Program-made: the position numbers and the translations under genes | Notes under the pieces: model-generated | The model's input: the letters and a program-made list of their open reading frames with translations, nothing else | What the model was told of the DNA's origin: nothing | Databases searched by the model: none | Source of the DNA: an uncultured beta proteobacterium | GTDB taxonomy: Bacteria > Pseudomonadota > Gammaproteobacteria > Burkholderiales > Casimicrobiaceae | NCBI GenBank assembly: GCA_963734575.1 | Contig: CAVTHT010000007.1 | Span: 96,549 to 160,548 of the forward strand | Length of the DNA stretch: 64,000 bases | Reading direction: 5' to 3' | In this document: piece by piece, positions 39,742 through 64,000 of the stretch | Layout: every line of letters starts with the position of its first letter | Position numbering within the stretch: the stretch's first letter is position 1

Positions 39742-39760
39742 CACAGCCTTGGCGCATCGC

Positions 39761-39778
39761 GTCAGGCCGAAGCCCGAC
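39761..39778. repeat. REP-like element copy 3 (variant GTCAGGCCGAAGCCCGAC)
   Basis: gtcaggccgaagcccgaccacag. Confidence 0.7.
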
Positions 39779-39837
39779 CACAGATGAGGAAGCGTCGGCA
39801 GCGGGTCGGAAGCGTGGCTTGCACGGGTGATCGACAG

Positions 39838-39861
39838 CTGTAGGTCGGGCTTCAGCCCGAC
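39838..39861. repeat. REP-like element copy 4, inverted orientation (CTGTAGGTCGGGCTTCAGCCCGAC)
   Basis: ctgtaggtcgggcttcagcccgac. Its reverse complement matches copies 1-3, including the CACAG/CTGTA tail. Confidence 0.7.
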
Positions 39862-44734: not shown

Positions 44735-45983
44735 GCGAATCCCGACCGCCCGAAGACGCGGCGATGGCCGGATTGCGCGCGGTGCAGTCGGCCATCCAGC
44801 GCTTCCTGCTCCTCGAGTCCGCAGGCGGCATCCTGCTCGTCGGCGCCGCGGTGCTCGCGACGCTGCTGATGAACTCGCCGCTCGCCGGCGGCTACGCCGC
44901 GTTCCTGCAGCTGCCGGTCACGATGCAGTTCGGCGATCTCGGGGTCTCGAAGCCGCTCTTGCTGTGGATCAACGACGGCCTGATGGCGATCTTCTTCTTC
45001 CTGGTAGGACTGGAGCTCAAGCGCGAGCTCCTCGAAGGCGAGCTCTCCACGCGCAGCCAGGTACTGTTGCCCGCCGCAGCGGCCATCGGCGGCATGGCGG
45101 TACCGGCGATCGTGTACGTGCTGTTCAACGCCGGCGATCCCGTGGCGATCAAGGGCTGGGCGATTCCCGCGGCGACGGACATCGCGTTCGCGGTCGGGGT
45201 GCTCACGGTGCTCGGCACCCGGGTGCCCGCGTCGCTCAAGATCTTCCTGCTCGCGCTCGCGATCATCGACGATCTCGGGGCGATCATCATCATCGCGTTG
45301 TTCTACACCGGTGGGCTGTCCACGCTGGCGCTTCTCGTGGCCGCCGTCGCGATGGTCGTGCTGCTCGCCTTCAACCTCGGCGGCGTGATGCGTCCGACCG
45401 CCTATTACATCGTCGGTGTCGCGCTCTGGCTCGCCGTGCTCAAGTCCGGTGTGCATGCCACGCTGGCCGGGGTGCTCTGCGCGGCATTCGTTCCGCTCAA
45501 GGGCCGTCGCGGATCCGAGCCGTCGCCCCTGCGCACGCTCGAGGAGAGCCTGCATCCATGGGTCGTGTACGCGATCCTGCCGGTGTTCGCGCTCACCAAT
45601 GCCGGCATCGACTTCTCCGGCGTATCGCTCGAGGATCTCACCGGGCGCGTGCCGCTGGGGATCGCCGCGGGCCTGTTCATCGGCAAGCAGGCCGGCGTCT
45701 TCCTCACGGTCCTGCTGCTCGTGAAGACGGGCCTCGCGAGCAAGCCGGAAGGGGCGCGCTGGTCGCACATCTATGGCGTCGCCGTGCTCTGCGGCATCGG
45801 GTTCACGATGAGCCTCTTCATCGGCTCGCTCGCCGTGGAAACGCACGGCGAGCGGTACCAGACGAGCGTGCGCGTCGGTGTCATCGCGGGCTCGCTCCTC
45901 TCGGCGCTCGTCGGCTACCTGTTCCTGCGCTTCGTGGCACCGCCAGCCGTATGCGAAGCCGTCCCACCGGGACGAAGGCGTGA
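44731..45983 (+). CDS. nhaA: Na+/H+ antiporter NhaA inserted between trpE and trpG; 3' end unresolved (reads in frame into trpG)
   Basis: [28 protein letters not shown]...[23 protein letters not shown]...[15 protein letters not shown]...[21 protein letters not shown]. The ATG overlaps the trpE TGA. A TGA in another frame (45981-45983) sits immediately before the trpG ATG. Confidence 0.8.
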
Positions 45984-45984
45984 C

Positions 45985-46580
<596 letters not shown>

Positions 46581-46604
46581 ACCCAGCCCCCGCCAGAGGA
46601 CCAC

Positions 46605-47637
46605 ATGCCCATCACCATGCAGGAAGCCTTGCAGCGCACGATCGAGCACAGGGAGATCTTCCACGACGAGATGCTCGCGCTGATGCGCCGGATCATGAGC
46701 GGCGAAGCGACGCCGGTCATGATCGCGGCGCTCACCGTCGGACTGCGGGTCAAGAAGGAAACCGTCGGCGAGATCGCCGCGGCGGCGCAGGTCATGCGCG
46801 AGTTCGCGACGCGCGTCGAGGTCCCTGACCAGGAGCACCTGGTCGACATCGTCGGCACCGGCGGCGACTCCGCGCACACGTTCAACATCTCCACCGCGTC
46901 GATGTTCGTCGCCGCCGCCGCCGGCGCGCGCGTCGCGAAGCACGGCGGCCGGTCGGTGTCGTCGAAGTCCGGCAGCGCCGACGTGCTGGAGGCGCTCGGG
47001 CGCGAACATCATGCTGAGTCCCGCCCAGGTCGCGACGTGCATCGCGGAGACCGGGATCGGGTTCATGTTCGCACCGAGCCATCACACCGCGATGAAGCAT
47101 GCGGCACCGGTGCGGCGCGAGCTCGGCATACGCACGATCTTCAACATCCTCGGGCCGCTCACCAATCCGGCGGGCGCACCGAATCAGCTCCTCGGCGTGT
47201 TCCATCCCGACCTCGTCGGCATCCAGGTGCGCGTGCTGCAGCGCCTCGGCAGCCGCCACGTGATGGTGGTGTACGGCAAGGACGGCATGGACGAGGTCTC
47301 CCTCGGTGCGGCCACGATGGTCGGCGAGCTCAAGGACGGCGACGTGCGCGAGTACGAGATCCATCCCGAGGACTTCGGACTGCGCATGATCAGCAACCGC
47401 GGCCTCAAGGTCGCCGACGCGGTCGAGTCGAAGGACATGGTGCTCGAAGCGCTCTCCGCCGTGGAGGGCACGCCGCGCGAGATCGTGGTGCTGAATGCGG
47501 GGGTGGCGCTCTACACCGCCGACGTCGCGGCCACGATCGCCGAAGGCATCGAGCGCGCACGCGAGGCGGTGGCGAGCGGCCGGGCACGCCGCAAGCTCGA
47601 GCAGTTCGTCGAAGCCACGAAGAAGCTCGGCGGATGA
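46605..47637 (+). CDS. trpD: Anthranilate phosphoribosyltransferase; one frame change near 47000
   Basis: [68 protein letters not shown]...[53 protein letters not shown] / ...[16 protein letters not shown]... Confidence 0.85.
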
Positions 47638-47674
47638 CGCGCGGGATCCTCGCTCGCGTCGCGCCGGGGCGCAC

Positions 47675-48464
47675 ATGAGCGACATCCTCGCGCGCATTCT
47701 CGCGACCAAGGCGGAGGAGATCGCACGGGCGCGCGGCGAACGCCCGCTCGCCGCGGTCGACGCCATGGCGCGCAGCCGAACGGACGTGCGCGATTTCGTC
47801 GGCGCGCTCCGCGGCACGATCGCGGCGGGCCGCGCCGCGGTGATCGCGGAGGTCAAGAAGGCGAGCCCCAGCAAGGGCCTGCTGCGGCCCGACTTCGATC
47901 CCGCCGCGATCGGCAGGAGCTATGCGGACGGCGGCGCTGCTTGCCTCTCCGTGCTCACCGACCGGCAGTACTTCCAGGGCGCGCCGGAGTATCTCGACAT
48001 GGCACGCGCGGCGAGCGGCCTGCCGGCGTTGCGCAAGGACTTCATCGTCGACGAGTACCAGGTCGCGGAAGCGCGGGCCATCGGCGCGGACGCCGTGCTG
48101 CTCATCGTCGCCGCGCTCGACGATGCCCGCCTCGCATGCGCTCGAGGCGGCCGCCGAAGGCTACGGCCTCGCGGTGCTCGTGGAAGTGCACGACGCGCAC
48201 GAGCTCGACCGCGCGCTCGCGCTGCGCACGCCGCTCATCGGCATCAACAACCGCGACCTGCGCACCTTCGAGGTCCGCCTCGAGACCACGCTCGATCTCC
48301 TGCCGCGCATTCCGCGCGAGCGCCTCGTGATCACCGAAAGCGGCATCCACGCCGCGGCGGACGTCGCGCGCATGCGCTCACGCGGCGTCGATGCGTTCCT
48401 GGTCGGCGAGGCGTTCATGCGCGCGGCCGACCCCGGCGCCGCGTTGCGCGCGATGTTCGCCTGA
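47675..48464 (+). CDS. trpC: Indole-3-glycerol phosphate synthase; one frame change near 48125
   Basis: [20 protein letters not shown]...[53 protein letters not shown]...[30 protein letters not shown] / ...[20 protein letters not shown]...[14 protein letters not shown]...ESGI. Confidence 0.85.
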
Positions 48465-48596
48465 CGCACGCCCGGACGTGATCGCATCGCAAATGCGGTG
48501 CTATCATTCCTGCCGTTTGCTGATCCCGCGCGTACTCGCGCCCGGGCGTTGGTCACGGCGTTGACCAACTGCATCACGCCCCACCAGGAGCGCGTC

Positions 48597-49688
48597 TTGT
48601 CGGCCATCGTCGCCGAAAAACTCAGCAAGCACTGGACCACCGCCGAAGGGCAGGTACGCGCCGTGGACGCGGTGTCGTTCGCCTTCGACGAGGGCACGCT
48701 CAACGTCCTGCTCGGACCGTCGGGTTGCGGCAAGTCCACGACGCTGCGCCTGATCGCCGGTCTCGAGCAGGCCGACGGCGGACGCGTGCAGATCGCCGGA
48801 CGCGATGTCACGGGCCTGCCACCTGCGCAGCGCAACATCGCGATGGTGTTCCAGTCGTATGCGCTTTTCCCGCATCTCACCGTGGCCGAGAACATCGTGT
48901 TCGGCCTGCGCGTGCGCAAGGTCGACGCCGCCGAGCGCGGGCGCCGCCTCGACAAGGTCGCGGGCCTGCTCGGTCTCGGCAAGCTCCTCGACCGGAAACC
49001 GGGGCAGCTCTCCGGCGGACAGCAGCAGCGCGTGGCGCTGGGCCGCGCGATCATCGCCGAAGCGCCGGTGTGCCTCATGGACGAGCCGCTGTCGAATCTC
49101 GATGCGCAGCTGCGCCAGGAAATGCGGGCGGAGATCCGCAGCCTGCAGCGCACGCTGGGCATCACGATGGTGTACGTGACGCACGACCAGGTCGAGGCGA
49201 TGTCGATGGCCGACCGCGTCGTGCTGCTCAACGCAGGCCGCATCGAGCAGAACGGCGCGCCGGCTGACCTGTACGACATGCCCGCGAACACGTTCGTCGC
49301 GCGATTCATCGGCACGCCGCCGATGAACCTGCTCCCGCTCGTCGCGGGCAGCGACGGCGCGGTGATCGCCGGCACGACGGGCCCCTCGTTCGCGCCGGCG
49401 AGCGCCGCCGGCTGGACGCTCGGCGTGCGCCCGGAGCACGTCAGCCTCGCCTTCGAGCGCGGCGTGCGTGCCGAGGTCGTCGCCAGCGAATATCTCGGCG
49501 CCGACTCCCTGCTGAGCTGCCGGGTCGGCACCGCCGGCGTCACGGTGCGCAGCGCGGGACGCGTCGCACTCTCGGCAGGCGACACGGCGTGGCTCACGTG
49601 GTCGCCCGCCGCGCAGCATTTCTTCGGACCCGACGGGGTGCGCGTCGCCGAGCGCGATCATGCCCCGGCGGCAACCATGCTCGCGTAG
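48597..49688 (+). CDS. CUT1-family carbohydrate ABC transporter ATP-binding protein (MalK/UgpC-like), probable TTG start
   Basis: Walker A LLGPSGCGKSTTLR, Q-loop, signature LSGGQQQRVALGRA, Walker B CLMDEPLSNLD, H-loop YVTHDQ, and a C-terminal TOBE-like regulatory domain. Confidence 0.85.
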   Translation: MSAIVAEKLSKHWTTAEGQVRAVDAVSFAFDEGTLNVLLGPSGCGKSTTLRLIAGLEQADGGRVQIAGRDVTGLPPAQRNIAMVFQSYALFPHLTVAENIVFGLRVRKVDAAERGRRLDKVAGLLGLGKLLDRKPGQLSGGQQQRVALGRAIIAEAPVCLMDEPLSNLDAQLRQEMRAEIRSLQRTLGITMVYVTHDQVEAMSMADRVVLLNAGRIEQNGAPADLYDMPANTFVARFIGTPPMNLLPLVAGSDGAVIAGTTGPSFAPASAAGWTLGVRPEHVSLAFERGVRAEVVASEYLGADSLLSCRVGTAGVTVRSAGRVALSAGDTAWLTWSPAAQHFFGPDGVRVAERDHAPAATMLA

Positions 49689-49720
49689 CAACAACAACGT
49701 TTCATCACGGAGGAGAAGAC

Positions 49721-51014
49721 ATGTTCTCGAGCTTGTTGGCACGTGTGATCGCCGGCGTCGCGTTGCTGGTGGCGATGGATGACGCCGACGCTGGCGCAGG
49801 CCCCGGTGGAGGTTTCGTTCTACTACCCGGTCGCGGTCGGCGGCCCGATCACCAAGATCATCGACGGCTACGCCGCCGATTTCCAGAAGGAGAACCCGGG
49901 GATCCGGCTGCGCCCGATCTACTCGGGCAGCTACCAGGATTCGATCACCAAGGCGCTCACGGCGGTGAAGAGCGGCGAGCCGCCCGTGATGTCGATCCTC
50001 CTGTCCACCGACATGTTCACGCTGATCGACGAAGACGCGATCGTGCCGTTCGACGATCTCATCCGCACCAACGACGATCGCGCCTGGCTGAAGAGCTTCT
50101 ATCCGGCCTTCATGGAGAACAGCCAGACCGGCGGCAAGACGTGGGGCATCCCGTTCCAGCGCTCGACCATCGTGCTGTACTACAACAAGGAGCTGTTCAA
50201 GGAAGCGGGGCTCGATCCCAACCGTCCGCCGGGAACGTGGAAGGAGATGGCGGACTACGCGCAGAAGCTCACCAAGCACGACGGCTCCGGCAAGGTGACG
50301 CAATGGGGCATCCAGATCCCGTCGTCGGGGTTCCCGTACTGGCTCTTCCAGGCGCTCGCGATCGAGAACGGCGTGAACCTCATGAACGAGGCCGGCACGC
50401 AGACGTACTACGATCGTCCCGAGGTGATCGACGCGCTGCAGTACTGGGTCGACCTCGTGAAGAAGTACAAGGTGCACCCGGAAGGCATCGTCGACTGGGG
50501 CACCACGCCGAAGGACTTCTTCGAGCGCAAGGTCGCGATGGTGTGGACGACGACGGGCAATCTCACCAACGTCAAGAGCAACGCCAAGTTCGATTTCGGC
50601 GTGGCGATGCTTCCGGCCGGCAAGCAGCGGGGCAGCCCGACGGGCGGCGGCAACTTCTACCTTTTCAAGAAGAGCACGCCGCAGCAGCGCGAGGCCGCGC
50701 TCAAGTTCATCAAGTGGGTCACCTCGCCCGAGCGCGCAGCGCAGTGGGGCATCGACACGGGTTACGTGGCAGTGCGCGCGGATGCGTGGGACACGCCGGT
50801 CATGAAGCAGTACGTCGCGGGCTTTCCCGCCGCGGTGGTCGCGCGTGATCAACTGCCGTACGCCAAGGCGGAGCTTTCCACGCACGACAACCAGCGCGTG
50901 ACCAAGGCGCTCAACGACGGCCTGCAAGCGGCGCTCACGGGCACCAAGACGCCGGAGCAGGCGATGAAGGACGCGCAGCGCGAGGCCGAGCGGCTGCTGC
51001 GCTCGTATCGTTGA
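49721..51014 (+). CDS. ABC transporter periplasmic substrate-binding protein (family 1, UgpB-like); frame change near 49778 inside signal peptide
   Basis: MFSSLLARVIAGVALLVAM / ...TPTLAQAPVEVSFYYPVAVGGPITKIIDGYAADFQKENPGIRLRPIYSGSYQDSITKAL... Confidence 0.8.
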
Positions 51015-51098
51015 CGGCATGGAGCCCTGCGTGGCGCGCGCCGACGTCGCTGCGATGAAGCGGCGCGCGGTGATGCGCACGTCGCGCGCTTCCTGATC

Positions 51099-52020
51099 AT
51101 GGCCACGGTCGCGCCCGCCCTGCCGGCACCCCGGGTGGGCGTGGTCGTGCGCTCGCGCGAGTGGGTGCACGCGTGGCTGCTGCTCCTGCCGGCCGTGGCC
51201 CTGCTCGCGCTCTTCACGCACTATCCGGCGCTCGCCACGCTGTGGCACAGCTTCTTCACCACGCCCAAGGGCAGCCGGCCGTCGCGATTCGCCGGGCTCG
51301 ACAACTACCGTCAGCTCGGCGAAGACCCGATCTTCTGGCAGTCGCTCACCAACAATCTCATCTACGCGGCAGGGACCATCCCGCTCTCCATCGCGCTCGC
51401 CATGCTGATGGCGGTGTGGGTGAACAAGCGCATCGCGGGTCGCGGCTTCCTGCGTCTTGCGTACTTCACGCCGACCATCCTGCCGATGATCGCCGTGGCG
51501 AACATCTGGCTCTTCTTCTTCACGCCGGAGTACGGGCTGCTCGAAAAATGGCTGGGCGCGCTCGGCTTCGGCAGCCACAACTGGCTGGGCAGCAAGAACA
51601 CCGCGCTCGGCTGCCTGATGGTGGTCACGGTGTGGAAGGAGGCGGGCTTCTTCATGATCTTCTATCTCGCCGCCCTGCAATCGATGTCGCCGAATCTCGC
51701 CGAGGCCGCGGCGATCGAGGGTGCGTCGCGGTGGTACTTCTTCCGCCGGGTGACCTTCCCGCTGCTGATGCCCACCACGCTGTTCGTGCTTCGTGAACGC
51801 GGTGATCAACGCGTTCCGGCTGGTCGACCACGTGGTGGTGATGACCCGCGGCGGGCCCGACAACGCGACCGAGCTCCTCCTCTACTACGTGTACGAGATC
51901 GGCTTCCGCTTCTGGGATTCCGCCTATGCGGCCGCGCTGACCGTGGTGCTGCTCGCGATCCTCGGCGTGGTCGCCCTGCTGCAGTTCTTCTTCCTCGAGC
52001 GCAAGGTGCATTACCAGTGA
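51099..52020 (+). CDS. ABC transporter permease (UgpA/MalF-like); frame change near 51785
   Basis: Six-TM permease with an EAA-like loop: LAEAAAIEGASRWYFFRRVTFPLLMPTTLFVL / VNAVINAFRLVDHVVVMTRGGPDNATELLLYYVYEIGF. Confidence 0.8.
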
Positions 52021-52845
52021 CGCCGCTCGACGCCTCGCCGCGCTGGATGCAGGCGCTGGAGACGACCGGCGCGTGGACGCTCGGTCTCCTCTGGATCCTG
52101 CCGCTCGCGTATGCGTTCTGGACGGCGTTCCATCCCGGCGAGTTCTCGACGCGCTTCGTGATCGATGCGCCCGTCGACCCTCGCCAACTTCGTCGCGGCG
52201 TGGCATGCGGCGCCGTTCGCGCGCTACTTCCTGAACACCGTGCTCCTCGTGAGCATGGTGCTCGCAGCGCAGCTCGTGCTCGTGACGCTCGCCGCCTATG
52301 CGTTCGCGCGCTACACGTTCCCGGGACGCGGCGTGCTGTTCGCGCTGGTGCTCGTGCAGCTCATGGTCATGCCCGACGTGCTGATCGTGGAGAACTATCG
52401 CACCATGGCGGCACTGGGTCTCAAGGACACGATCCTCGCCATCGGATTGCCTTACATGGCGAGCGCCTTCGGCATCTTCCTCTTGCGCCAGACGTTCAAG
52501 ACGGTGCCGCGCGAGCTCGACGAGGCGGCGCGGATCGAGGGTTGCAGCGCGCTGCAGGTGCTGTGGAAGGTGTACGTTCCGCTGGCCCGCCCGACGTACC
52601 TCGCGTACGCACTCGTCAGCGTGTCGTACCACTGGAACAACTTCCTGTGGCCGCTCATCATCACGAACTCGGTCGAATCGCGTCCGGTCACCGTGGGCCT
52701 GCAGGTGTTCTCCGCGACGGACCAGGGGATCGACTGGGCGATCATCACGGCCGCGACCTTGCTGTCGGTGGCGCCGCTGCTGATTGCTTTCCTGCTGTTC
52801 CAGCGGCAGTTCGTGCAGTCCTTCATGCGCGCCGGCATCCGGTGA
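52017..52845 (+). CDS. ABC transporter permease (UgpE/MalG-like), GTG overlapping previous stop; frame change near 52160
   Basis: LDEAARIEGCSALQVLWKVYVPLARPTYLAYALVSVSYHWNNFLWPLIIT (EAA motif region), and a C-terminal TM segment. Confidence 0.8.
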
Positions 52846-53030
52846 CATTGCCGCGCTGGCCGGCGGATATGGGGCGCATGCTTCGTTGCTGCTCGATTTC
52901 GGTGCTCACGTACTTTGCGTGTACGTTCCGCTCGAAATCTCCGCTGCGCCTCGCCTGCGCCTCATCTCCGGGGCCATCATCGTCAATGTCGACGCGACGC
53001 TCCGCGAAGCGGCGCAATCTATCCATTCAT

Positions 53031-53054
53031 TCTGTAGGTCAGGCTTCAGCCTGA
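53031..53054. repeat. REP-like element copy 5 (CTGTAGGTCAGGCTTCAGCCTGAC), same family as the lipA-mltA cluster
   Basis: ctgtaggtcaggcttcagcctgac lies 30 nt upstream of the EEP gene ATG. Confidence 0.75.
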
Positions 53055-53084
53055 CACCGTGATGCATTCCCGAAAGGCCACGCC

Positions 53085-53942
53085 ATGATCCTCATCACCT
53101 GGAACGTGCAATGGTGCCGCGGCGTCGACGGCCGCGTGGATCCCGCCCGCATCGTCGCCGAAGCGAAGCGCCTCGCCGACTTCGACGTGCTGTGCCTGCA
53201 GGAGATCGCCGACAACTTTCCCGACCCCCGCCTGCCCGGCAGCGCGGGTGAAGACCAGTTCGCGATGCTGGCCTCGCTGTTGCCCGGCTTCACCGCCGTG
53301 CCCGGTCCTGCCGTGGACCACCCGGGTGATGACAACCAGCGCCGGCGCTTCGGCAACATGATCCTGTCGCGCCTGCCCGTGCGGCAGGCGTTCCGGCAGT
53401 TGCTCCCGTTTCCGGTGGATCCGGGCGTGAAGGGCATGCCGCGCATCGCCGTCGAGGCCGTCGTCGGCGCCGCGTTCGGCGACGTGCGGGTGATCACCAC
53501 GCATCTCGAGTACTACTCGCAGCGGCAGCGCAGCAGCCAGGTGGAGGGCCTGCGCTCGTTGTACGCCGAAGGTCATGCCCACGCCGTGCAGGGCTCGGTC
53601 ACGGACACGTCGGGGAATCCGTTCAACAGCTATCTCCGGCCCGAGGCAACCGTGATCTGCGGCGACTTCAATCTCGAGCCCGAAGATCCGCTCCACGGCC
53701 GGATGCTCGAGCCGTTCGGCGACGGCACGCCGCGCCTGCACGACGCATGGGAAGCAGCGCACCCCGGCGAGGCACACCCGTCCACGTTCAAGATCTACGA
53801 GAAGGTGGTGCCCGGCGAGCCCGAGCTGCACTGCGATTTCGTGTTCGTCAACGCGCCACTGGTGCGACGTCTGCAATCGGTGCGGATCGACCAGCAGACG
53901 CAGGCGTCCGACCACCAGCCCGTGATCGTCACGTTCTCCTGA
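53085..53942 (+). CDS. Endonuclease/exonuclease/phosphatase (EEP) family protein
   Basis: MILITWNVQWCRGVDGRVDPARIVAEAKRLADFDVLCLQEIADNF...ICGDFNLEPED...DHQPVIVTFS. The ORF is intact at 285 aa. Confidence 0.8.
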   Translation: MILITWNVQWCRGVDGRVDPARIVAEAKRLADFDVLCLQEIADNFPDPRLPGSAGEDQFAMLASLLPGFTAVPGPAVDHPGDDNQRRRFGNMILSRLPVRQAFRQLLPFPVDPGVKGMPRIAVEAVVGAAFGDVRVITTHLEYYSQRQRSSQVEGLRSLYAEGHAHAVQGSVTDTSGNPFNSYLRPEATVICGDFNLEPEDPLHGRMLEPFGDGTPRLHDAWEAAHPGEAHPSTFKIYEKVVPGEPELHCDFVFVNAPLVRRLQSVRIDQQTQASDHQPVIVTFS

Positions 53943-53948
53943 TGCGGC

Positions 53949-55003
53949 TCAGGACGACCTGCCCGTACGTGTAACACGACGGAGCAGGTGACGGAGCAGA
54001 CGGGGCAACCCGGAGCGTCCTCCGTCCGCCCTGAGCACCGAGATGTCGTCCTCGAGCTTGCACCGCCACGCTTCCGCTGCGGCGAGCGACTCCTCGCGGG
54101 CGGCGATGACCGCACGCATCTCCCCGATCTCGGCCTGCAATCCATCGCGCTGCCGTACCGCCTCGGCATGATGGCCCTGCCAGGCGGCGACTTCGCGATC
54201 CAGCGCGTTGCCACGCTCGTGCGCGGCATGCAGCGCGCTCGTCACCTTCTCGTAATCCCGGCGCACCCACTCCCCGGCATCGGCGAGCACGGACACCGTG
54301 CGTGGCACGTTCGGAGAGCGCAGCGGCGTCGTCGCTCGCCACCACGAGGAAGTACAGCGCACGGGCATGGCCGTCGCGACGTGTCGCAGCATCGTCCTCG
54401 CGCAACTCGAACAGCTCGCCGGCCGTCGCGTCCTGTTCCGGTGCGACCACGGAGAAGAAGCTCGCGTGCTGGCCGAACCATACGGCATGCGCGAAGCGTC
54501 GCGCGAGCATGGCTGCGAGCTCTTCGCGGTCGAGCTCGCGCACGTGAAAGGGATTGGCCGTGCCACGGGCCTCCGAGTATTCGCGCCGGTTGGGACACGA
54601 CAGGACGAGCAGGCCTCCCGGCCGGAGCACGCGGCGGATCTCGTCGAGGAACGCGTCCTGCGCCGCGATGTGCTCGAGGGTCTCGAACGACACGACGGCG
54701 TCGAACGCCTGATCGGGCAGGGGCAGGGCGCGCGCAGTCGCCGAGCTCGAAACGCAGGTTCGGCTGCGCGCCGTAGTGCGCGCGTGCATGCGCCACGGCG
54801 TCGGGCGCGATGTCCACGCCGGTGACGGATGCGGCATGGCGCGCGAGCAGCGCGCTGCCGTAGCCCGCGCCGCAGGCCACGTCGAGCACGTGGCGGCCGG
54901 CGACCAGCGCCGCAGCGAGGTGATAACGATGCCAGTGCTCGTACCAGATCTCGCCGGCAACGCCCGGCACGAACCGCTCGCCGGTGAACGGGAGATCCGT
55001 CAC
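53949..55003 (-). CDS. Class I SAM-dependent methyltransferase with C-terminal coiled-coil extension; GTG start overlapping upstream stop; at least two frame changes (about 54300, about 54730)
   Basis: VTDLPFTGERFVPGVAGEIWYEHWHRYHLAAALVAGRHVLDVACGAGYGSALLA...GVDIAPDAVAHARAHY / ...LPDQAFDAVVSFETLEHIAAQDAFLDEIRRVLRPGGLLVLSCPNRREY / ...DYEKVTSALHAAHERGNALDREVAAWQGHHAEAVRQRDGLQAEIGEMRAVIAAREESLAAAEAWRCKLEDDISVL. Confidence 0.7.
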
Positions 55004-56837
55004 GGCGTCGCGCGCCGCCCGGTCAGCAGGCGCCGCAACGGGCCGCGCCACGCCGCGACATGGGCGAGCCACGGCCGCAGCATCACGAACCGGCGCACGT
55101 CCTGGCGGCTCACCAGCACGAGCGACTGCGTGCGCATGTACGTCTCGGCCATGCGCGAGATGTCGTACGGCGACAGCGTGAGGCGCATCGCGCGCTGGCG
55201 CTCGACCGCGTCGCGGTAGGCGAGGTCGAGCAGCTCCTGCCGGCCGGCGGCTTCCTTGGCGCCCGCCGGGACGCGGTACTTGGACGTGGTCTTCTCGACC
55301 AGCACGAACTCGTGCTCGAGCGAGTAGCGGGTCCACAGGTTCCAGTCCTCGAGCTGGTCCATGTCCTCGGCGAAGCCGCCGTACGTCTCGTACAGGCTGC
55401 GATGGAACAGCACCGCCTGGATCGGCAGGTAGTTGTGATGCCACAGCGTCAGCCGGTCGAACGGCTGGCGGTGCTGCGTGATGTGCGCGATCTCCGCCAG
55501 CCGGCCGCTCGTCCCGTCGATCACATGGGTGTGCGTCTCCCACGAGAGGCCGTACGCGCCCTTGAGCCCGCGCTCGCGCACGGCGTCGAGCAGCACCTCG
55601 ACGTGATCGGCGAAGAGCACGTCGTCATCGTCGAGGAAGTTCAGCCATTCGCCGCGCGCCGCGGCGAGCGCGAGGTTGCCGGCGCGCGCGCGTCCCACGC
55701 GGTGGCCGGTCGCGCCGATAGTGGATGCGCAGGCGATCGCGGAAGCTGTCGACACCGCTTGCGAGCGCGGCGGTCCGTCCTCGATCACGACCGCCTCGAC
55801 GTCGCGGCCAGGTCTGGTTGGCGACGCGATTCGAGCGCCTGGCGCAGCGATGCGGTACGTCCGATGGTGCGGATCAGGATCGAGACGAGCGGTCCGTCGC
55901 GGCGCGGCTCCTCGCGACGCGAATGCATCGCGACGAAGGCGCCGTCGCGGCGCAACTCGTAGCTCCAACCGTTGAACACCGGGTGAAACGTCTCGGTCGG
56001 CCGCACCCTGGTCGACGCGAACTGCGGCCAGCTGCCGCACGAAGCGCAGACAGCGCCCGCAGCAATCCGCGCCGGCGGCGCGGAAATTCCGGCGGCGCGA
56101 GCGATCTCGGCGAGCACCATCGAGATGCCCTGCAGCGTGCGCCCGACGCCGCCGTAGCGCGCGCGCAGGCACAGGTTCGTTTCCACGCCGCCCAGGACCT
56201 GCAGCGGCTTGACTTCGCCCGCATGCCGATACGTGCGATGCACGACGGCGAAGCGCGGCACGTAGCGCAGCGCGGTGTCCCGCGGCGCGCAGTCGCCACG
56301 ACAGATCCACGTCCTCGCCGTACATGAAGATGCGCGGATCGAACCCGCCCACACCCTGGTACGCGCTGCGACGGAAGAGCACCGCGGCGCCGCTCACCCA
56401 CGGCGTGTCGAGCGTCACGGGGTCGTAGGCCTTCGGGTGCTCGTAGGGGATCTGGCGGAGCTCCCACGCGGCGACCTCGGGTGCGTCGCGCTCTGCGGTC
56501 GCGACGAGCTTCCGCGAGCACGGACGGCTCGAGGATGCAGTCCTGGTTGAGCACGAGGAGCCACGGCGAGGCGCCGCTCGCGGCGTTGGCGTTGTGGCCG
56601 CGGCCGAAGCCGATGTTGCTGGTGCGGCGGCCGCACCGTGACGCTGGCGAAGGCCTTCCCGTCGCGCAGTGCCGGCAGCGCCTCGATCCGCGCGACGGCC
56701 GCGCCTCTTCGGCGTGTTGTCGAGCACGTACAGGTGCACCTCAGGCCGCTGCTCTGCTCCGCGACGCTGCGCAGGAGCGCTTCGAGCAGCGCGTCGTCGG
56801 GGGCGAACGTGACGATGCTGACGTCAACGGCGGCCAC
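55000..56837 (-). CDS. Two-domain family-2 glycosyltransferase (tandem GT2), multiple frame changes
   Basis: GT2 domain 1: VDVSIVTFAPDDALLEALLRSVAEQ...HLYVLDNTP...YDPVTLDTPWVSGAAVLFRRSAYQGVGGFDPRIFMYGEDVDLSWRLRAAGH. GT2 domain 2: VSILIRTIGRTASLRQALES...WLNFLDDDDVLFADHVEVL...EDWNLWTRY. The segments lie in different frames. Confidence 0.65.
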
Positions 56838-58288
56838 GGCTCGCCCAGCGCCGCAATGCGCGGCGCACCAGCTGCGGGAGCTGCGCGAAGGCAGCCGTGT
56901 CCTGCGCCATCCGTTCGACCCTGCCGGCAAGCTCCGCGGTCGTGCGATCGCGCGCCTGCAGCTCGGCATTCAGCGCAGCGACGTCGCCTTCGAGCTTCGC
57001 CGCCCACTGTCTCCCCGCGTCGACATCGCCCTGCAGCTTCGCGGCCCATGCGTGGGATGCCGCCACGGTCGATTGCGCCGCTTGCAGCGCTTCGCAGAGC
57101 TGCACGAGCTCCTGCCGGAACGCAAACCCATCGAGGTTGGTGGCGAGCAGCCGCTGCAGGCGTAGCGTCGAGGACGTCAGCCGGCGCGCCCTGTGCCGAC
57201 TCGAGATCGAACTGCGCGTAGAGCGCGCCGATGGCATCGGCCATCGCGCCGAGCGGAGGAACGACGGAGGGATCGTCGGACACGATGGCCGATTCTACGC
57301 GGGCCCGCTCGCTGCGCCCGTCCGTCGAGCAGGTCGCCGATCAGGCGCGCGGCCGTTGCGCCGTCGAAGCCCGGGGGCAGCACCCAGCCACCGCCATGGG
57401 CGCGAACGCGTGCGCCAAGCGCGCCCTCGTCCGGCACGATGACCGGTATGCCGGCGGACCACACCTCCGACAGCGTGTAGCTGAAGCTCTCGGGGATGCG
57501 ATTCGGGAACAACGCGAGCGACGGTCGGTACGCTGCGAGCCATCCGGGAAGGTCGTCGTCCGCGTACGGGCCGTGCACGAAGAGCCCGCGCGCGAGCCAG
57601 CCCTGCAGCAGCCGCTCGTCGGTGTAACCGATCACGACGAGCGCCGCATCGTGCTCGGCAATGGCGGTCGGCGACACTGCGCAGCAACGTGCTGCCCTTG
57701 TGCGGGCCGACCGCACCCACGACGGCGATCACGTGCCGCGGGGCCTGCTCGACGAACGCCGCCGGCGCGTCGCGCGAATGCGGCGCCCGATGCGGCACGC
57801 CCGGCGCAATGACGGTCACGGGCACGTCCGGCATCCAGGCCCGCATCTCGGCGCGGATGTATTCCGATGGCGCGATCACCGTGCGTGCGCGCCGCAGCGT
57901 CCTCCGCACCTCACCGATCCACGCGACATCCGGCGTGCCGACCGAAGCACCGGCGAAGAGCGCCGGGTGCAGGAAACCGAGATCGTGCAGGGTCGCCACC
58001 ACGCCGACCGTGCCATCGTGGGCGAGGACGGCCTCGGCGCGTTCGCGCGCGCGCCGGTCGACGCTGTGGAGATGGACGAGGCGTGTGCCGGTGGCCGCCA
58101 GCTGCGGTCGCGGCGTTGCCCGGCGCGAGCGGCCAGTAGCGTCGCGCCGCGAGGTCTTCCAGCACGTCGATGTCCGCGCCGACGTGCAGCGCGAGGTGGC
58201 GTCCCGGGACCGCCGCCGCCACGTCGCGGATGTAGCGATCCACGCCGCCGCCGGGCGCGGACGTGATGTGCAGCACGGCGCCGGTCAT
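56824..58288 (-). CDS. GT4-like glycosyltransferase with C-terminal coiled-coil tail; multiple frame changes
   Basis: MTGAVLHITSAPGGGVDRYIRDVAAAVPGRHLALHVG... / HVIAVVGAVGPHKGSTLLRS / ALVVIGYTDERLLQGWLARGLFVHGPYADDDLPGWLAAYRPSLALFPNRIPESFSYTLSEVWSAGIPVIVPDEGALG / C-terminal LQRLLATNLDGFAFRQELVQLCEALQAAQSTVAASHAWAAKLQGDVDAGRQWAAKLEGDVAALNAELQARDRTTAELAGRVERMAQ. Confidence 0.6.
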
Positions 58289-58400
58289 GTTCTTGGGCGG
58301 GATGGGACGACGGGCCAGGCAAGTATATGCGTGCGCGGCCGCGCGCCGGCCGTTCGCCTAGAATGGCGGGGCCGCAGGGCTGCAGCGCGGCCAACTCCCC

Positions 58401-61400
58401 ATGCTTTCCGGATCCAAGCCCCCGAACGTCACCTTCGACGCCGCCTTGTGCACGGCGCGCCTGTCGCCGCGCACCCACGTGCTGTTCGTCAGCCACGGCT
58501 GGGGCGGCGGCGTGCAGCGGCACATGGACGATCTCGCTGCGCTGATCGCCGACGCTTGCGACGTGATCCGGCTGGTGCCGGGCCCCGGGGGCACCGTGCG
58601 CGTGGAGATCGGCGGCGCGCACGGCGCCGCGCGCGCCTATTTCGCGTTGCCGGCGGAGAGCGAGACGCTGCTCGCCCTGCTGCGCAGCGTCGGCATCGCA
58701 CGCGTCCACTTCCACCACGTGCACGGGTTGCCGCGCGCCGTGCTGGACCTGCCGCGCCAGCTCGGCGTCGCGTACGACGTCACGCTGCACGACTATTACG
58801 CGCTGGATCCGCGTCCCGTGCGCGACGGTGGCGCGCCGCGCGAGGACGACGCGGCCAGCCCCGACGACGACATGCCCTGGGAGCTGTCCCTCGAGGAATG
58901 GCGCACCGTCTTCGGCACGTTCCTGCGTGGCGCTGCGCGCGTGATCGCGCCGTCGCACGATGTCGAAGAGCGTTATCTGCGCGCATGGCCGGATCTCGCG
59001 TTGCAGGTCCGCGCCCACCCGGAGCCGGCCGCGTCGCCCATGCGGGCGATCGTCCGCGTGGTGGCGCCCGGCCGCATCTCGCCGGCGAAGGGGTTGCACG
59101 TCATCGTCGCCTGCGCGCTGCATGCGCGCGCCAACGACCTGCCGCTCTTCTTCCGCATCCTCGGCAGCACGACCGAGCCGGTGGTGCAGGCGCCGTCGGT
59201 GCCGCTGAGCGTGTCCGGCGAATATCCCGAAGACGCCCTGCACGCGCTGCTGGCGGCCGAACGGCCGGACGTGATCATGCTGCCGACGCAGGTGCCGGAA
59301 AGCTACGGCTATGTGCTCTCCGCGGCGATCGCGTCCGGCGTGCCGATCGTCGCCTCCGCGCTCGGCGCGTACATCGAGCGCCTGGCGGACGTCCCGGGTG
59401 CAACGATGCTGCCGCACGATGCGCCGCCCGCGGCATGGAACGAGGCTCTGCTTCGCGTCGCGGACATCCCGCGACGTGCGCCCGGGGAGCCAGTCCGGAC
59501 GGGATCGTCACCGGAGGACTACGGCGCGTGGTACCTGGAGCCGTTGGCGGGAACGACGGCCGAGCGCGGTCCCGAGATCACCCTCGACGCGCGTCATCTC
59601 GCCCTGCCGCGCGGCGACGTCGATCAGGAGCCGCTTTCGCTCGCGGAGCTGTATCGCTATGGGGTGGAATGCGGGCAGCTGGAAGCGCGCACCGAGCTCG
59701 TGCGGCGCCTCGACGACATCGAGACGGAGCGTGCCGAGCTCGTCGCGCTGCGCGAGGCGGCGCTCGCCGAGCACGAAGCTGCGCAGTCGCGCGTGGAGCA
59801 GGCCGAGCATGCATTGCGCGTGTCGCACGCGCGCATCCAGGAGTTCGAGCATTCGACGTCCTGGCGCCTCACCGCCCCCGTGCGCACCGTCGGACGCCGG
59901 TGGAAGCTGCTGCAGGCGCGGTTCCGCGCAACGTATGCGACGGCCCGGCACGTCCCGCGCCAGGCGGACATCGCGCGTACGATCCTGCGCGATCACGGTG
60001 CGGCTGCGCTGTGGACGCGCGTGCGGAACAAGCTCTCCGGCAAGCGCCGCTACCGGCCGCCGGTCGTGACGCGCTATGCGCAGGAGATCGCTGCCGGCCC
60101 GCTGACGTTTCCCCCGATGGCTCCCGCGGGCCTGCGGGCGTCGATCGTCATCCCGGCGTTCGGCGATCCGCTGCTCACGTTCACCTGCCTCAAGAGCATC
60201 GCCGCGCATACCCCGGCCGGCCGCTACGAGGTCGTCGTGGTGGACGATGCGTCGCCGCAGCCGGTGGCGGAGGCTCTGCGCGAAGTGCACGGCATCTGCG
60301 TCGAGCGCAACGCCGTCAACCTGGGCTTCATCGCGAGCTGCAATCGCGGCGCCGAGCTCGCGCGGGGCGAAGTCCTCGTATTCCTCAACAACGACACCAT
60401 CGTCACGGCCGGCTGGCTGCAGGCGATCCTGCAGACATTCGAGCGTCGCCCGCACACGGGCCTCGTCGGCGCGAAGCTCGTCTATCCGGACGGCCGCCTG
60501 CAGGAGGCCGGCGGCATCGTGTGGCGCGACGGCTCGGCGTGGAACTACGGACGCGACGAGGATCCGGAGCGGCCCGAGCACAACTACGTGCGCGAGGTCG
60601 ACTACTGCTCCGGCGCCTGCATCGCCATTCCCTGCTCGCGTGTTCCGCGCCGTCGGCGGCTTCGACGTGCGCTATGCGCCGGCGTACTACGAGGACACCG
60701 ACCTCGCCTTCGCCGTGCGCGCGGCCGGACGCAAGGTCGTGTACCAGCCGCGCGGCGACCATCGTGCATTTCGAGGGACAGACCGCGGGACCGATCTCGA
60801 TGCAGGCATGAAGCAGCACCAGGTGGTCAACCAGCGCCGCTTCGCCGAGAAATGGGGTGCGACGCTGGCCGCGCACCGCGCCAACGGCATCGAGCCGCAC
60901 GCTCGAGCACGATCGCTGGGCGCGGCACCGCGTGCTGGTCATCGACGCCTGCATGCTGACGCCGGACCAGGATTCCGGGCTCGGTGCGCATGCAGGCCGT
61001 GCTCGAGCTCGCTGATCGAGCTGCACTGCAAGGTCGACCTTCGTCGCCGACAGCCTCGAGCACCGCGAGCCCTACGTCGGCGACCTGCAGCAGCGCGGCG
61101 TCGAGGTTCTCTTCCATCCGTACGTGCGCAGCGTGCCGGCGCTGCTCGCCGAGCGCGGCGAGGAGTTCGACGTCGATCGTGCTGTCGCGCCACTACATCG
61201 CCAACAAGCACGTCGAGACCGTGCGCACGTTCGCACCGCAAGCCCTGCTCGTGTTCGACACCGTGGACCTGCATTTCCTGCGCGCGGAGCGCCTCGCGGA
61301 GCTCGAGGGCGGCGCGATGGCGAAGGCAGCCGCGCGGGCCAAGCGCGAGGAGGAGCTCGCCCTCATCCGCCGGGCCGACGTCACGCTGGTCGTGAGCGCC

Positions 61401-62072
61401 GATCGAGCGGGATCTCCTCGCGGAGCTCGCCCCCGAGGCGCGAGGTGCGCAGTCCTTTCGAACATCCACGAGCCGATGCCGATCGGCAAGCCGTTCGCGG
61501 ATCGCGAGGGCCTGGTGTTCATCGGCGGGTTCCAGCATCCGCCGAACACCGACGCCATGCTGTGGTACGCGCAGGACGTGCTGCCGCACGTGCGCCGGCT
61601 GCTGCCCGGCGTGCGGACGTACGTCATCGGCGCCGATGCGCCGGCCACGATTCGCGACCTCGCCGCCGAGGATTTCGTCGTGACCGGGCACGTGCCCGAC
61701 GTCGCGCCGTATTTCACCCGGGCGCGTGCGTCGATCTCGCCGCTGCGCTACGGCGCGGGCGTCAAGGGCAAGGTGAACCTGGCGCTGAGCTACGGCGTCC
61801 CGGTCGTGGCCACCACGCCGTCGATCGAGGGCATGCATCTCACGCCGGGAGCCGACGTGCTCGTCGCCGACACGGCGGAAGCGTTCGCCGACGCCATCGC
61901 GCAGGTGTATCGCGACGAGATGCTGTGGCACCGCATGTCCGATGGCGGCCGCGCCATCATCCGCCAGCACTTCTCGCGCGACGTCGCGCGTGCGGCACTG
62001 GCGGCGCTCCTCGCCCGGGCGCACCGCCGCGCACCGCCAGCACCCGCCGAAGGAGCTCGTCAGCGCCGAGTG
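58401..62072 (+). CDS. Very large multi-domain glycosyltransferase (GT4-like - coiled coil - GT2 - GT4), about 1200 aa; at least 5 frame changes between 60640 and 61450; 3' end approximate
   Basis: N-terminal domain: [16 protein letters not shown]...[22 protein letters not shown]. Coiled coil: [78 protein letters not shown]2 domain: [41 protein letters not shown]...VFLNNDTIV...[10 protein letters not shown]-terminal GT4 domain: [28 protein letters not shown]...[32 protein letters not shown]. Confidence 0.65.
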
Positions 62073-62717
62073 AAGAGCAGGTCGCGCACGCCGTGGCCCA
62101 GGCCCAGCCCGCGCTTCTCGAACTTCGTCAGGGGACGCCACGCCGGGCGCTCCGCAAAGTCGCTCGCGGTGTTGGCGAGCAGCGTCTCCGCGCTCAGCGT
62201 GACGAGGATTTCCTGCGCGTATTCCTCCCAGTCCGTGGCGACGTGCAGCACGCCTCCGGGTGCGAGTCGTCGCGCGAGCTCGTGCACGAAGCCCGGCTGC
62301 AGGAGACGCCGCTTGTGATGGCGCTTCTTCGGCCACGGGTCGGGAAAGAACACATGCACCCGGTGGAGGCTGCCGTCGGGGATCATCTGCGCGACGACCT
62401 CGACGGCGTCGTGCTGGATGACGCGCAGGTTGGTGAGATCGCGCGCCTGCGCGATGGCGCATAGCAACGCGCCCACGCCCGGCGCATGCACTTCGACGCC
62501 GAGGAAATCGGTGGCGGGCTGTTCGTGCGCGATGGCGACCGTCGTTTCGCCCATGCCGCAGCCGATCTCGAGCACGACCGGCGCACGCCGGCCGAACAGC
62601 TCGCCGAAGTCGAGCGGCCGCGGCGCGTAGTCGACGCCGAAGCGCGGCCAGAGCGCGGCCAGCGCATGCGCGCTGTGCGGGCGACATGCGACCCTGGCGC
62701 AGCACGAAGCTGCGCAC
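62060..62717 (-). CDS. trmB: tRNA (guanine-N7)-methyltransferase TrmB (N-terminal start uncertain; frame change near 62640)
   Basis: [14 protein letters not shown] / [87 protein letters not shown]...[23 protein letters not shown]...ATDWEEYA. Confidence 0.8.
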
Positions 62718-62780
62718 GGAGCGATGCGGCCGCGATCGTTGGTGGCGGCGCCGCCGCGGAATCGCGCAGCGTCGGGCGGA

Positions 62781-63453
62781 TCAGGGCTGCGCAACGCGGC
62801 CCCACCCGGGCTCGTCCAGGCGCCGCTCGAGCGTACGCCCCGAGCTCTCGGCCGCACGTGTGTACTCGAGCTCGAGCGTGTCGGCGGATTTCCACCGCAC
62901 GCTCGCGTCGCTCCACGGCTCGGGCGGCGTCCACAACGCCTCCTTGCGCACGCCGTCGCGCGTCACGCGCCAGACCGCGAGCTGGTTGCTGCAGTTCTGC
63001 GGAGCAGAAGTCGGCGGTGGCGATGCGCTGGCGGTCCGGTGCGAGCTTCGGTTCGGCCGGCACCTCGAAGCTGCGCCCGGTCGCGCGCTGCAGCAGCACG
63101 AATGACGCGTCGTCGCCCTGCGTCGCGTAGATGACGGCCATGTTCACGCTGTCGAGGTAATCCCACAGCGCGTACGAGCGGCCGCCGTCGGGCGCCATGC
63201 TGTCCTTGAAGGTCGCCTCGCCGCTCGGATAGAGCGTGACGCGGAGGGTGTCGCCGTCGCGCGTCGCGAGACTGGGCAGGCGCTTCAACTGCACTTCCTC
63301 GACCCGCCGGCCGCAATGCGCGAGGCCCTCGGCGCCGTCGCACGCGCTGGCGACCTCCTGCGGCGTGAGCGCCACGGCGCCCGCGGGCGCGACGTGCAAT
63401 GCGAGGAGAAGCGCCGCGACGGCGAAGCGCGCGGCGCGGTCGGGCGCGCGCAT
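62781..63453 (-). CDS. Secreted hypothetical protein (signal peptide); frame change near 62990
   Basis: [151 protein letters not shown] / ...[63 protein letters not shown]. Confidence 0.5.
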
Positions 63454-63455
63454 CC

Positions 63456-64000
63456 TCAGGAGCGGGCGATCAGCCCGGCCGTGGGGGAGCTGGGGCTGCC
63501 CTCGTAGAGCTTTCGCGGCATCCGGCCGGCGAGGAAGGCCTCGCGGCCGGCCTCGACGGCGAGACGCATCGCGCGCGCCATGCGCACCGGGTCTTTCGCC
63601 AGCGCGATCGCCGTGTTCATCAGCACGCCGGCGCAGCCGAGCTCCATGGCGATGGCCGCGTCCGAGGCCGTGCCCACGCCGGCGTCGACGAGCACCGGCA
63701 CCTTCGCCTGATCGATGATGAGGCGCAGGTTCCAGGGATTGAGGATGCCCATGCCCGAACCGATGAGCGAAGCGAGGGGCATGATGGCGACGCAGCCGAT
63801 CGCCTCGAGCTCGCGCGCGGCGATCGGATCGTCCGACGTGTACACCATCACGTCGAAGTCGTCGCGCACCAGCACCTCGGCGGCCTTCAGCGTCTCGCGC
63901 ACGTTCGGGAACAGCGTCTGCTGATCGCCGAGCACCTCGAGCTTCACCAGGCGATGTCCGTCCAGGAGCTCCCGCGCGAGCCGCAGCGTGCGAATGGCTT
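63456..64000 (-). CDS. thiG: Thiazole synthase ThiG, C-terminal part (5' end outside window)
   Basis: [114 protein letters not shown]. Confidence 0.85.

Follow-up and report, generated by a model that had tools for sequence, protein, structure and literature searches.

A variable glycan-assembly island with two probable coiled-coil ruler modules in a Casimicrobiaceae-like betaproteobacterium

Introduction

When coiled coils sit on three separate enzymes of one glycan-assembly locus, do these enzymes form a single machine, and do the coils set the length of the glycan that is made? This question is raised by a block of four glycan genes on contig CAVTHT010000007.1 (GenBank assembly GCA_963734575.1), within a stretch of 64 kb (positions 96,549 to 160,548 of the contig, hereafter the window). 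A preliminary description of this DNA had proposed that a methyltransferase, a family GT4 glycosyltransferase (GT) and a giant protein of about 1200 amino acids (aa), each bearing a coiled coil, are the three partners of a candidate chain-length system of undescribed architecture. Following the results below, the block is probably a variable glycan-assembly island of a Casimicrobiaceae-like soil betaproteobacterium, situated between a ugp-like ATP-binding cassette (ABC) importer with an adjoining EEP (endonuclease/exonuclease/phosphatase) gene on one side and trmB on the other, which holds two modules of ruler design.

An extended coiled coil on a terminator enzyme is a characteristic marker of ABC-transporter-dependent glycan assembly (PMC11231755). 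In WbdD and WbbB the coil acts as a membrane-associated scaffold and molecular ruler, and ORF6 of Klebsiella O7 has the same hallmark; in WbbB and O7 ORF6 the polymerase modules are fused to the coil, whereas WbdD recruits its polymerase, WbdA, and modules are in general flexibly distributed among polypeptides (PMC11231755).

Results and discussion

Gene content and domain anatomy

The glycan genes of the window and their parts are as follows (positions in the window).

58401 to 62072, plus strand: the giant, ~1220 aa, with a GT4 domain (GT-B fold), a coiled coil, a helix bearing the SWR motif (described below) plus linker, a GT2 domain (GT-A fold) and a GT4-like domain (GT-B fold)
59676 to 59858, plus strand: coiled-coil segment of the giant, aa 426-486 (heptad score; corresponding helix 404-457 in an AlphaFold 2 (AF2) model)
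59853 to 60062, plus strand: SWR motif (59853-59885) plus a helical basic linker (conservation in alignment A1; spacing between motif and GT2)
58289 to 58400, no strand: divergent intergenic region of 112 bp between the GT4-CC operon and the giant gene (direct sequence reading)
56824 to 58288, minus strand: GT4-CC, in which a GT4 (GT-B) domain is followed by a C-terminal coiled coil and a tail that is basic and amphipathic (Pfam, frame map)
56881 to 57117, minus strand: coiled-coil segment of GT4-CC, with two WAAKL[QE]GDV units 14 residues apart (heptad score)
55000 to 56837, minus strand: tandem GT2, two GT-A domains with NQD and DDDD motifs (Pfam on fragments and the intact L003 ortholog)
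53949 to 55003, minus strand: MT-CC, a class I S-adenosylmethionine (SAM) methyltransferase with a long C-terminal helix and a basic tail (Pfam Methyltransf_11/25, three-frame reading, tblastn against L003)
54024 to 54266, minus strand: coiled-coil segment of MT-CC (heptad score, AF2 helix in an ortholog, motif count)

Pfam searches and frame maps bear out the gene content that had been described, i.e. an EEP gene, a methyltransferase with a coil, a tandem GT2, a GT4 with a coil and a divergently transcribed giant, as well as the order of GT4, coil, SWR motif, GT2 and GT4-like domain within the latter. On the minus strand the order is GT4-CC, tandem GT2 and MT-CC (together called the cassette), and all three genes overlap. 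The junction sequences confirm the GTGA in which the tandem GT2 ends (TGA) and MT-CC begins (GTG), and give an overlap of ~14 nt between the 3' end of GT4-CC and the start of the tandem GT2. The promoters of the GT4-CC operon and of the giant gene presumably lie in the 112 bp between them. The ExxxxxxxE motif in the GT-B domain of GT4-CC reads PESFSYTLSE. With a G+C content of 66-74% in this region, long spurious open reading frames (ORFs) are common; coding frames were placed by third-position G+C (GC3) together with ortholog comparison.

The betaproteobacterial metagenome-assembled genome (MAG) L003 has an identical arrangement in open frames, with proteins 65-85% identical to those of the window. 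In the L003 giant, Pfam finds Glyco_transf_4 and Glyco_trans_1_4 (1-360), GT2 (580-800) and Glyco_trans_1_4 (1036-1171), and in the other three proteins one GT4 domain (GT4-CC), two GT2 domains (tandem GT2) and Methyltransf_11/25 (MT-CC). The AF2 model of the giant ortholog P0021 (48-sequence alignment, mean predicted local distance difference test (pLDDT) score of 86) consists of a GT-B domain (1-335), helices at 404-457, 460-506 and 508-520, a GT-A domain (545-800) and a second GT-B domain (810-1180). That of the MT-CC ortholog P0241 has a Rossmann methyltransferase fold (20-240) followed by a single helix of 115 residues (245-359), with a pLDDT of 82-98 over most of its length.

The coiled-coil segments that had been proposed in MT-CC, GT4-CC and the giant are found again by a heptad score (shuffled sequences pass its threshold in 0-8% of trials), which is positive in exactly these three places and marks no coil segment in the tandem GT2 or the EEP protein. 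AF2 likewise models long helices in the orthologs of MT-CC and the giant, so that these two coils are seen by both methods and that of GT4-CC by the heptad score only. A heptad signal at the conserved position is present in 80 of 89 giants, 119 of 120 GT4-CC and 91 of 120 MT-CC proteins. The methyltransferase family ranges from 328 to 391 aa through indels within the coil segment, while the GT4-CC coil is built of heptad-phased WxxKL[EDQ]x[DE][IVL] units, which are spaced by 14 or 28 residues in 113 of 120 family members (the window's GT4-CC has two). One family member of 748 aa, P0160 (encoded on the L007 contig), has seven exact 28-aa tandem repeats in its coil, a natural expansion of coil length. 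One unit of the GT4-CC type also occurs in 9 of 120 MT-CC proteins, including that of the window (WRCKLEDDI).

A hydropathy scan gave no convincing transmembrane helix in the glycan proteins, the two windows above threshold being located inside Rossmann cores. The net charge of the C-terminal tails is +4 to +7, and significant amphipathicity is seen in the MT-CC and GT4-CC tails of the window (for GT4-CC with a hydrophobic moment above 97% of shuffles), but not in the L003 MT-CC tail. Conserved in these tails are a Trp/Arg-rich sequence in MT-CC (RWWLALPxRRL), a basic helix in GT4-CC (LPxxVRKLLLKKAFRARR) and AWRxPxxxxLRR in the tandem GT2. The tails suggest that the glycan enzymes would bind the membrane peripherally.

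As a separate observation, most giants carry a four-Cys insert (ICPQYHL..GRYCGEPD..GC..CL; alignment A1) in the N-terminal GT4, possibly a metal site judging by its sequence, which is replaced by an acidic, Cys-free stretch in the window (~58700-58830, plus strand) and in the L003 giant.

The SWR motif and the coil-GT2-GT4 core

After the coil, 79 of 119 giants and 72 of 120 MT-CC proteins have the motif [ST]x[SRT]W[RW]x[TASL]xPxR, here called the SWR motif. Its columns are at least 90% conserved in alignment A1 (48 sequences), the form in the giants being STSWRxTAPxR, and it precedes the GT2 domain by 90-95 residues in the 10 giants where this could be measured (93 residues in 7 of the 10). 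S-x-S-W-R-x-T-x-P-x-R is also found in a 1073-aa Lysinibacillus protein of the type X-coil-GT2-GT2 (L055, 6746-9967), and the motif recurs in an alphaproteobacterial methyltransferase-coil protein (L063, 17279-18544) that adjoins an RgpF-type rhamnan gene. No Pfam, NCBIfam or PDB entry covers the motif region, and searching the literature for the motif as a text string yielded nothing but false matches ("miswritten", for example). A single-sequence search with the coil plus SWR module against 1.84 billion cluster representatives gave 59 clusters only, which means that this module diverges too fast for single-sequence searching.

The coil-SWR module always stands ahead of a GT2-GT4 pair, and what lies N-terminal to it is variable: the giants have a GT4 domain there, one L082 protein of 1226 aa has a methyltransferase, and P0370, P0381 and P0390 have no such module. 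L082, a metagenomic rml/manC/GT9 cluster, encodes this 1226-aa methyltransferase version together with a 1309-aa GT4-coil-GT2-GT4 giant (1339-5019 and 10001-13930), and GtrA and YfdI-like genes lie beside the pair.

Likeness to characterised ruler systems

A coil on a terminator-type enzyme next to polymerising GTs, to which the preliminary description had drawn attention, agrees with the published hallmark of ABC-transporter-dependent assembly (PMC11231755). MT-CC has the coiled-coil protein with a terminator-type enzyme that this hallmark describes, and the GT4-coil modules also fit the layout. Within that paradigm the giant corresponds to the fused form and the cassette to the split one.

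The giant resembles WbbB (Klebsiella pneumoniae O12/Raoultella terrigena) in having an N-terminal GT, a coiled coil and two C-terminal GT modules. The order of GT, coil, GT and GT that had been likened to WbbB is therefore upheld, while a kinship is not: the modules are GT4, GT2 and GT4-like here but GT99, GT102 and GT103 in WbbB, the giant has no sequence match to any solved WbbB chain in a PDB search, and it differs further by the SWR helix with its 93-aa linker after the coil and by the lack of wzm/wzt nearby. In WbbB the GT99 module is the terminator (a beta-Kdo transferase) and GT102/GT103 are the polymerase modules.

A similar division holds for the likeness of MT-CC to WbdD (WbdD/WbdA of E. 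coli O9a/O8 and Klebsiella O3/O5). Shared are the SAM methyltransferase, the long C-terminal helix, the basic tail and a separate multi-domain polymerase encoded next to the methyltransferase. There is, however, no kinase domain such as the O9a/O3 type has (no Pfam or NCBIfam kinase match, and at only 351-366 aa the AF2 model leaves no room for one), and WbdD is absent from the 47 PDB sequence matches (E<=1e-4) and the top 50 Foldseek matches of MT-CC. The presumed polymerase also differs, being a tandem GT2 instead of the GT4-GT4 mannosyltransferase WbdA, and the operon encodes a second coiled-coil protein, GT4-CC. With ORF6 of Klebsiella pneumoniae O7 (MT-kinase-CBM-coil-GT2-GT2, where CBM is a carbohydrate-binding module) the cassette shares the methyltransferase, the coil and two GT2 domains, and published ORF6 orthologs include forms that end after the coil, as MT-CC does; compared by description, the cassette differs in having separate genes, with GT2-GT2 before the methyltransferase, and neither kinase nor carbohydrate-binding module.

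The comparison with WsaE that had been made agrees with the literature, since WsaE unites a methyltransferase (N-terminal) and two GT2 domains in one polypeptide, with WsaF alongside (PMC2943079). WsaE plus WsaF, of the Geobacillus stearothermophilus S-layer polyrhamnan, and the cassette have in common a methyltransferase, two GT2 domains, one GT4 and tightly overlapping genes, and Firmicute homologs of the tandem GT2 (35-39% identity) in wzm/wzt clusters form a further link. In the cassette, by contrast, GT2-GT2 and methyltransferase are two genes in this order, joined by GTGA, and coiled coils are present that are not described for WsaE or WsaF in PMC2943079. GT4-CC has no PDB sequence match to WsaF, and no rml genes are present in the window.

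PDB sequence searches with the four intact orthologs and the coil-plus-SWR segment otherwise gave generic GT-A and methyltransferase matches or noise. In Foldseek searches against the PDB the giant matched BshA, MshA and ppGalNAc-T best, and both models gave only generic folds; NCBIfam had no match above its curated cut-offs for the L003 glycan proteins. Membership of the WbdD or WbbB family is thus not borne out by either sequence (PDB) or fold (Foldseek).

Do the long helices then measure anything, or are they only oligomerisation or membrane-tethering scaffolds for peripheral GTs, with chain length set otherwise or not at all? The latter would be in line with the general use of coiled coils to oligomerise proteins, with the shortness of the giant's coil (~54-60 residues; GT4 motif to SWR motif 174-200 residues in the 14 family members measured) and with the nearly constant extension of GT4-CC (177-188 aa in 14 loci). 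It is nevertheless unlikely, as a coil between terminator-type and polymerase modules is a ruler in every characterised case, the GT4-CC and MT-CC coils vary across their families by heptad-phased units and central indels, and a methyltransferase, the classical cap-forming enzyme, occupies the distal end.

Slot variation: two modules or one machine

The co-occurrence of giant and cassette was compared in 80 loci. Between importer and trmB, the giant alone is present in L001, L002, L081 and L085 and the cassette alone in L005, L006, L010, L013, L015, L050 and L058, while both are present only in the window and L003. L035 and L036 have a giant with a tandem GT2 and a methyltransferase, without GT4-CC, and the cassette without giant is found in dozens of loci. 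In Usitatibacter the cassette is located amid housekeeping genes, bordered by smc, ligA, queF and EamA at one end and by dapC, dapD, pilT and dapE at the opposite end. Because the content of the slot differs between close relatives, a conserved, well-annotated lipopolysaccharide core cluster is ruled out as an explanation of the locus.

Nor are the families rare: among the 8000 candidates scored in each search, the giant family comprises at least 435 database clusters (E<=1e-10) and the GT4-CC family at least 495 (E<=1e-5), and a relative of the tandem GT2 is encoded in 587 of 600 pattern-matched stretches of the genome collection. "Short giants" of 631-634 aa were considered as a separate architecture and rejected, at least one of them (P0109, L085) being a fragment of a frameshifted full-length gene.

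The identity between GT4-CC and the N-terminal GT4 of the giant is 27-32%, from which the giant looks like a fused version of the pieces that the cassette encodes, GT4-CC being a paralog of the giant's N-terminal module. The idea that the three coiled-coil proteins are partners in one machine is not supported by the comparison, in view of how seldom giant and cassette occur together, and the locus most likely consists of two interchangeable or combinable serotype-like modules rather than one obligate three-partner complex.

In an integrated machine, the coils or SWR-type helices would bring the giant, GT4-CC and MT-CC together around the tandem GT2, and the product would be a single glycan whose length is set by a composite ruler. 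All four genes do share one divergent locus in the window and L003, the missing GT4-CC of L035 and L036 would fit a giant whose N-terminal module stands in for it, the post-coil motif is common to giant and MT-CC, and the window's MT-CC carries a coil unit of the GT4-CC type. Such an assembly is unlikely, however, when giants lack the cassette in at least 5 loci and cassettes lack the giant in dozens, co-occurrence is rare, and no correlation is seen between the coil lengths of the two cassette proteins GT4-CC and MT-CC (rho = -0.2, 14 loci), although this last comparison is uninformative, the GT4-CC coil being almost invariant there.

A more speculative reading of the two modules, to which we give only a small chance, is that the SWR helix, of which MT-CC, GT4-CC and the tandem GT2 carry variants, forms a common docking element for interchangeable coiled-coil terminators and polymerases. 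If so, a capping GT4 or a capping methyltransferase would combine variously with polymerases, the slot beside trmB would be a plug-and-play site for serotype switching, and tandem duplication would adjust the length of the coil by 14 or 28 residues at a time. The two ruler modules of the window would then share a polymerase pool, giving either two capped glycoforms or one doubly capped chain.

Export and substrate

As had been stated in the preliminary description, there is no wzm, wzt or rmlABC homolog in the window (tblastn). Relatives of the cassette are nevertheless associated with this exporter. In Rubrivivax (L044) the genes form an overlapping operon wzm-wzt-GT4CC-GT2GT2-acyltransferase, in Pseudoteredinibacter (L046) and a Comamonadaceae MAG (L039) wzm/wzt lie beside a GT2-GT4CC fusion and a tandem GT2, and the homologs of Fontibacillus (L052, also with rml genes) and Lysinibacillus (L055) are situated in wzm/wzt clusters. 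Within Casimicrobiaceae, L004 has in the same slot GT4-CC, the tandem GT2, a 472-aa methyltransferase-X-coil protein, Wzt and Wzm, followed by EEP and importer; its Wzm is 45% identical to that of Rubrivivax, and its Wzt has a weak Wzt_C match (27.1 bits, below the Pfam cut-off of 30.4). The Wzt proteins of other loci (402-477 aa) are long enough for a C-terminal carbohydrate-binding domain. Overall, 14 loci have a Wzm gene no more than 10 kb away from the tandem GT2. With regard to the substrate, rml genes accompany distant homologs in L052, L066, L068, L076 and L082, and an RgpF domain is present in L063.

An EamA/DMT-family transporter gene was observed upstream of GT4-CC in L014, L018, L021, L023-L025, L033 and L040 (Usitatibacter-type), and an EamA gene directly upstream of the stand-alone giant in L086/L087 (L086, 8950-9861). 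A link of this transporter to export is pure speculation.

It could be argued that the product is no Wzm/Wzt-exported surface polymer at all, but a cytoplasmic polymethylated polysaccharide, or a glycan that reaches a protein or lipid by another route, for example via the EamA-type transporter neighbouring the genes in relatives. The lack of an exporter in the 64 kb would fit, as would the Usitatibacter cassette alone among housekeeping genes and the EamA gene adjacent in several loci, and the combination of methyltransferase and GT4 recalls the enzymes of mycobacterial methylmannose polysaccharide (with a generic GT4 Foldseek match, 7qsg). Set against this are the distant and close cassette homologs in wzm/wzt operons, including the same slot in L004, basic tails that point to work at the membrane, and a coil-terminator design known only from exported glycans, which together make such a product very unlikely.

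Frameshifts: assembly errors or decay

None of the four glycan genes of the window is an intact ORF. Compared by tblastn with the intact L003 orthologs they contain 14 frame changes, four each in the giant, GT4-CC and the tandem GT2 and two in the methyltransferase. Those of MT-CC lie near 54730 and 54310, such that the Methyltransf_11/25 matches extend over two frames and the coil is in a third; the giant has at least four frameshifts, near 60639, 60755-61035, 61172 and 61985-62029, and the public record holds the same broken ORF of 852 aa (P0001). The flanks are affected as well, with one frame change each in trpD (near 47000), trpC (near 48137), both importer permease genes and the conserved 219-aa ORF. 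Since the flanking trp and permease genes are frameshifted too, most of the 14 breaks are probably errors of long-read metagenome assembly.

Whether the island is instead decaying, with real frameshifts and the glycan genes as pseudogenes, deserves consideration, as the density of frame changes is roughly three times higher in the glycan genes (53949-62072; 14 in 8.3 kb, 1.7/kb) than in the flanks (45985-53942 plus 62060-63998; 5 in 9.2 kb, 0.54/kb) and the sites are not homopolymers. It is quite improbable, though, because essential trp genes and importer genes are hit likewise, and every shift has amino acid identity to the orthologs of 53-85% on either side and a GC3 coding signal that continues across it; each ortholog segment aligns without large deletion. 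Comparable gene splits at other positions occur in the long-read MAG loci L047, L051, L053, L058, L062, L065 and L085, whereas the genes of short-read MAGs each align in one piece. The threefold excess may stem from micro-diversity of strains in a variable island, from higher G+C or from some real decay. A homopolymer cause was rejected on account of the sites themselves, and a sequence-motif cause was unconvincing (TCGAG at 5 of 19 sites against a background of 9.5%). A whole-window count of GC3 frame switches was discarded as a frameshift rate because it cannot separate gene boundaries from frameshifts.

Flanks of the island

The features bordering the variable slot are the following.

53037 to 53055, no strand: a repetitive extragenic palindromic (REP)-like palindrome, GGTCAGGCTTCAGCCTGAC, in the intergenic gap that separates the EEP gene from the importer permease gene
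53085 to 53942, plus strand: the EEP-family gene, intact (Pfam PF03372 Exo_endo_phos, E=7e-17)
62060 to 62857, minus strand: trmB, the conserved right-hand border of the slot (Methyltransf_4 in syntenic loci; tblastn against the window)

The palindrome is a truly repeated element, as had been called, with 5 copies in the window: besides the one at 53037, four are located within 180 bp at 39685-39861, against a chance expectation of 0.01. An Rfam scan of 52000-64000 matched nothing.

The EEP gene had been counted with the glycan system, which is not sustained. Its ortholog starts 4 bp within the upstream permease gene in L002 and L004, and for this reason EEP more likely closes the operon of the ugp-like ABC importer. 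Each of the six giants seen at this slot has EEP alongside, and EEP adjoins the importer also in loci without a giant (L004, L016, L058).

Upstream of the importer lies a trpE/G/D/C region (44071-48464, plus strand), and the order of trp genes, importer, EEP, variable slot, trmB and thiG is kept in L002, L081 and L085. Between trmB and thiG, all syntenic loci encode a protein of 219-224 aa without Pfam match (~62796-63369, minus strand, in the window).

A mechanism for the two modules

The anatomy of these proteins, its conservation and the association of relatives with wzm/wzt are observed directly; how the island would work is modelled on the characterised systems. In the first module, the ~1220-aa giant would hold its N-terminal GT4 at the far end of the coil, followed by the SWR helix and a linker of fixed length, while its GT2 and GT4 pair would polymerise the repeat unit. 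The second module would have the same design spread over three overlapping genes, with the tandem GT2 as presumed polymerase and MT-CC as a capping O-methyltransferase on its own helix of ~115 residues. The enzymes, soluble and peripherally bound to the membrane via basic C-terminal or post-coil helices, would elongate a polyprenol-linked glycan on the cytoplasmic face. By spacing the capping enzyme(s) from the polymerase, the coil would allow only chains of a minimum length to be capped, with a terminal sugar and/or a methyl group, and a Wzm/Wzt ABC transporter, with its genes in another part of the genome, would export the capped chain. This exporter is assumed because no exporter is present in the window and the cassette is mostly found among housekeeping genes. 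Capping by the methyltransferase, length control by the coil and export in this organism are all proposed by analogy.

A number of points weigh against this mechanism. We infer the ruler function and the terminator role of GT4, as well as the oligomeric state and how the coils are oriented, and GT4-CC could instead be a third polymerase GT, by analogy with WsaF beside WsaE (PMC2943079). The pLDDT is only 50-72 in the helical region of the giant (P0021 model), the coil score is home-made rather than a standard predictor, and GT4-CC and MT-CC show no co-variation of coil length in 14 loci, where GT4-CC is nearly constant. No sequence or fold match is specific to WbdD, WbbB or WsaF. The window lacks wzm/wzt as well as genes for an initiating transferase, a ligase or sugar nucleotides, the cassette has housekeeping neighbours in most Casimicrobiaceae and Usitatibacter loci, and the frameshift density of the glycan genes exceeds that of their flanks.

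Conclusions

New here are the use of different GT families on a known chassis, an operon that encodes two coiled-coil proteins, a post-coil motif that is conserved yet unannotated, and modular exchange at a fixed chromosomal slot. The genes of the window themselves are ordinary members of widespread families, and their sequence needs polishing; the families are useful for testing the ruler model, though unsurprising to a specialist. Molecular-ruler length control has been worked out in a few enterobacterial O-antigens only, and these families would extend the principle to GT4/GT2/GT4 enzymes, to a two-coil operon and to the abundant uncultured Burkholderiales of soil. The natural series of coils, from two 14-residue units to seven 28-residue repeats, offers material for ruler tests and glycoengineering, as does the constant coil-GT2-GT4 core with its exchangeable N-terminal modules.

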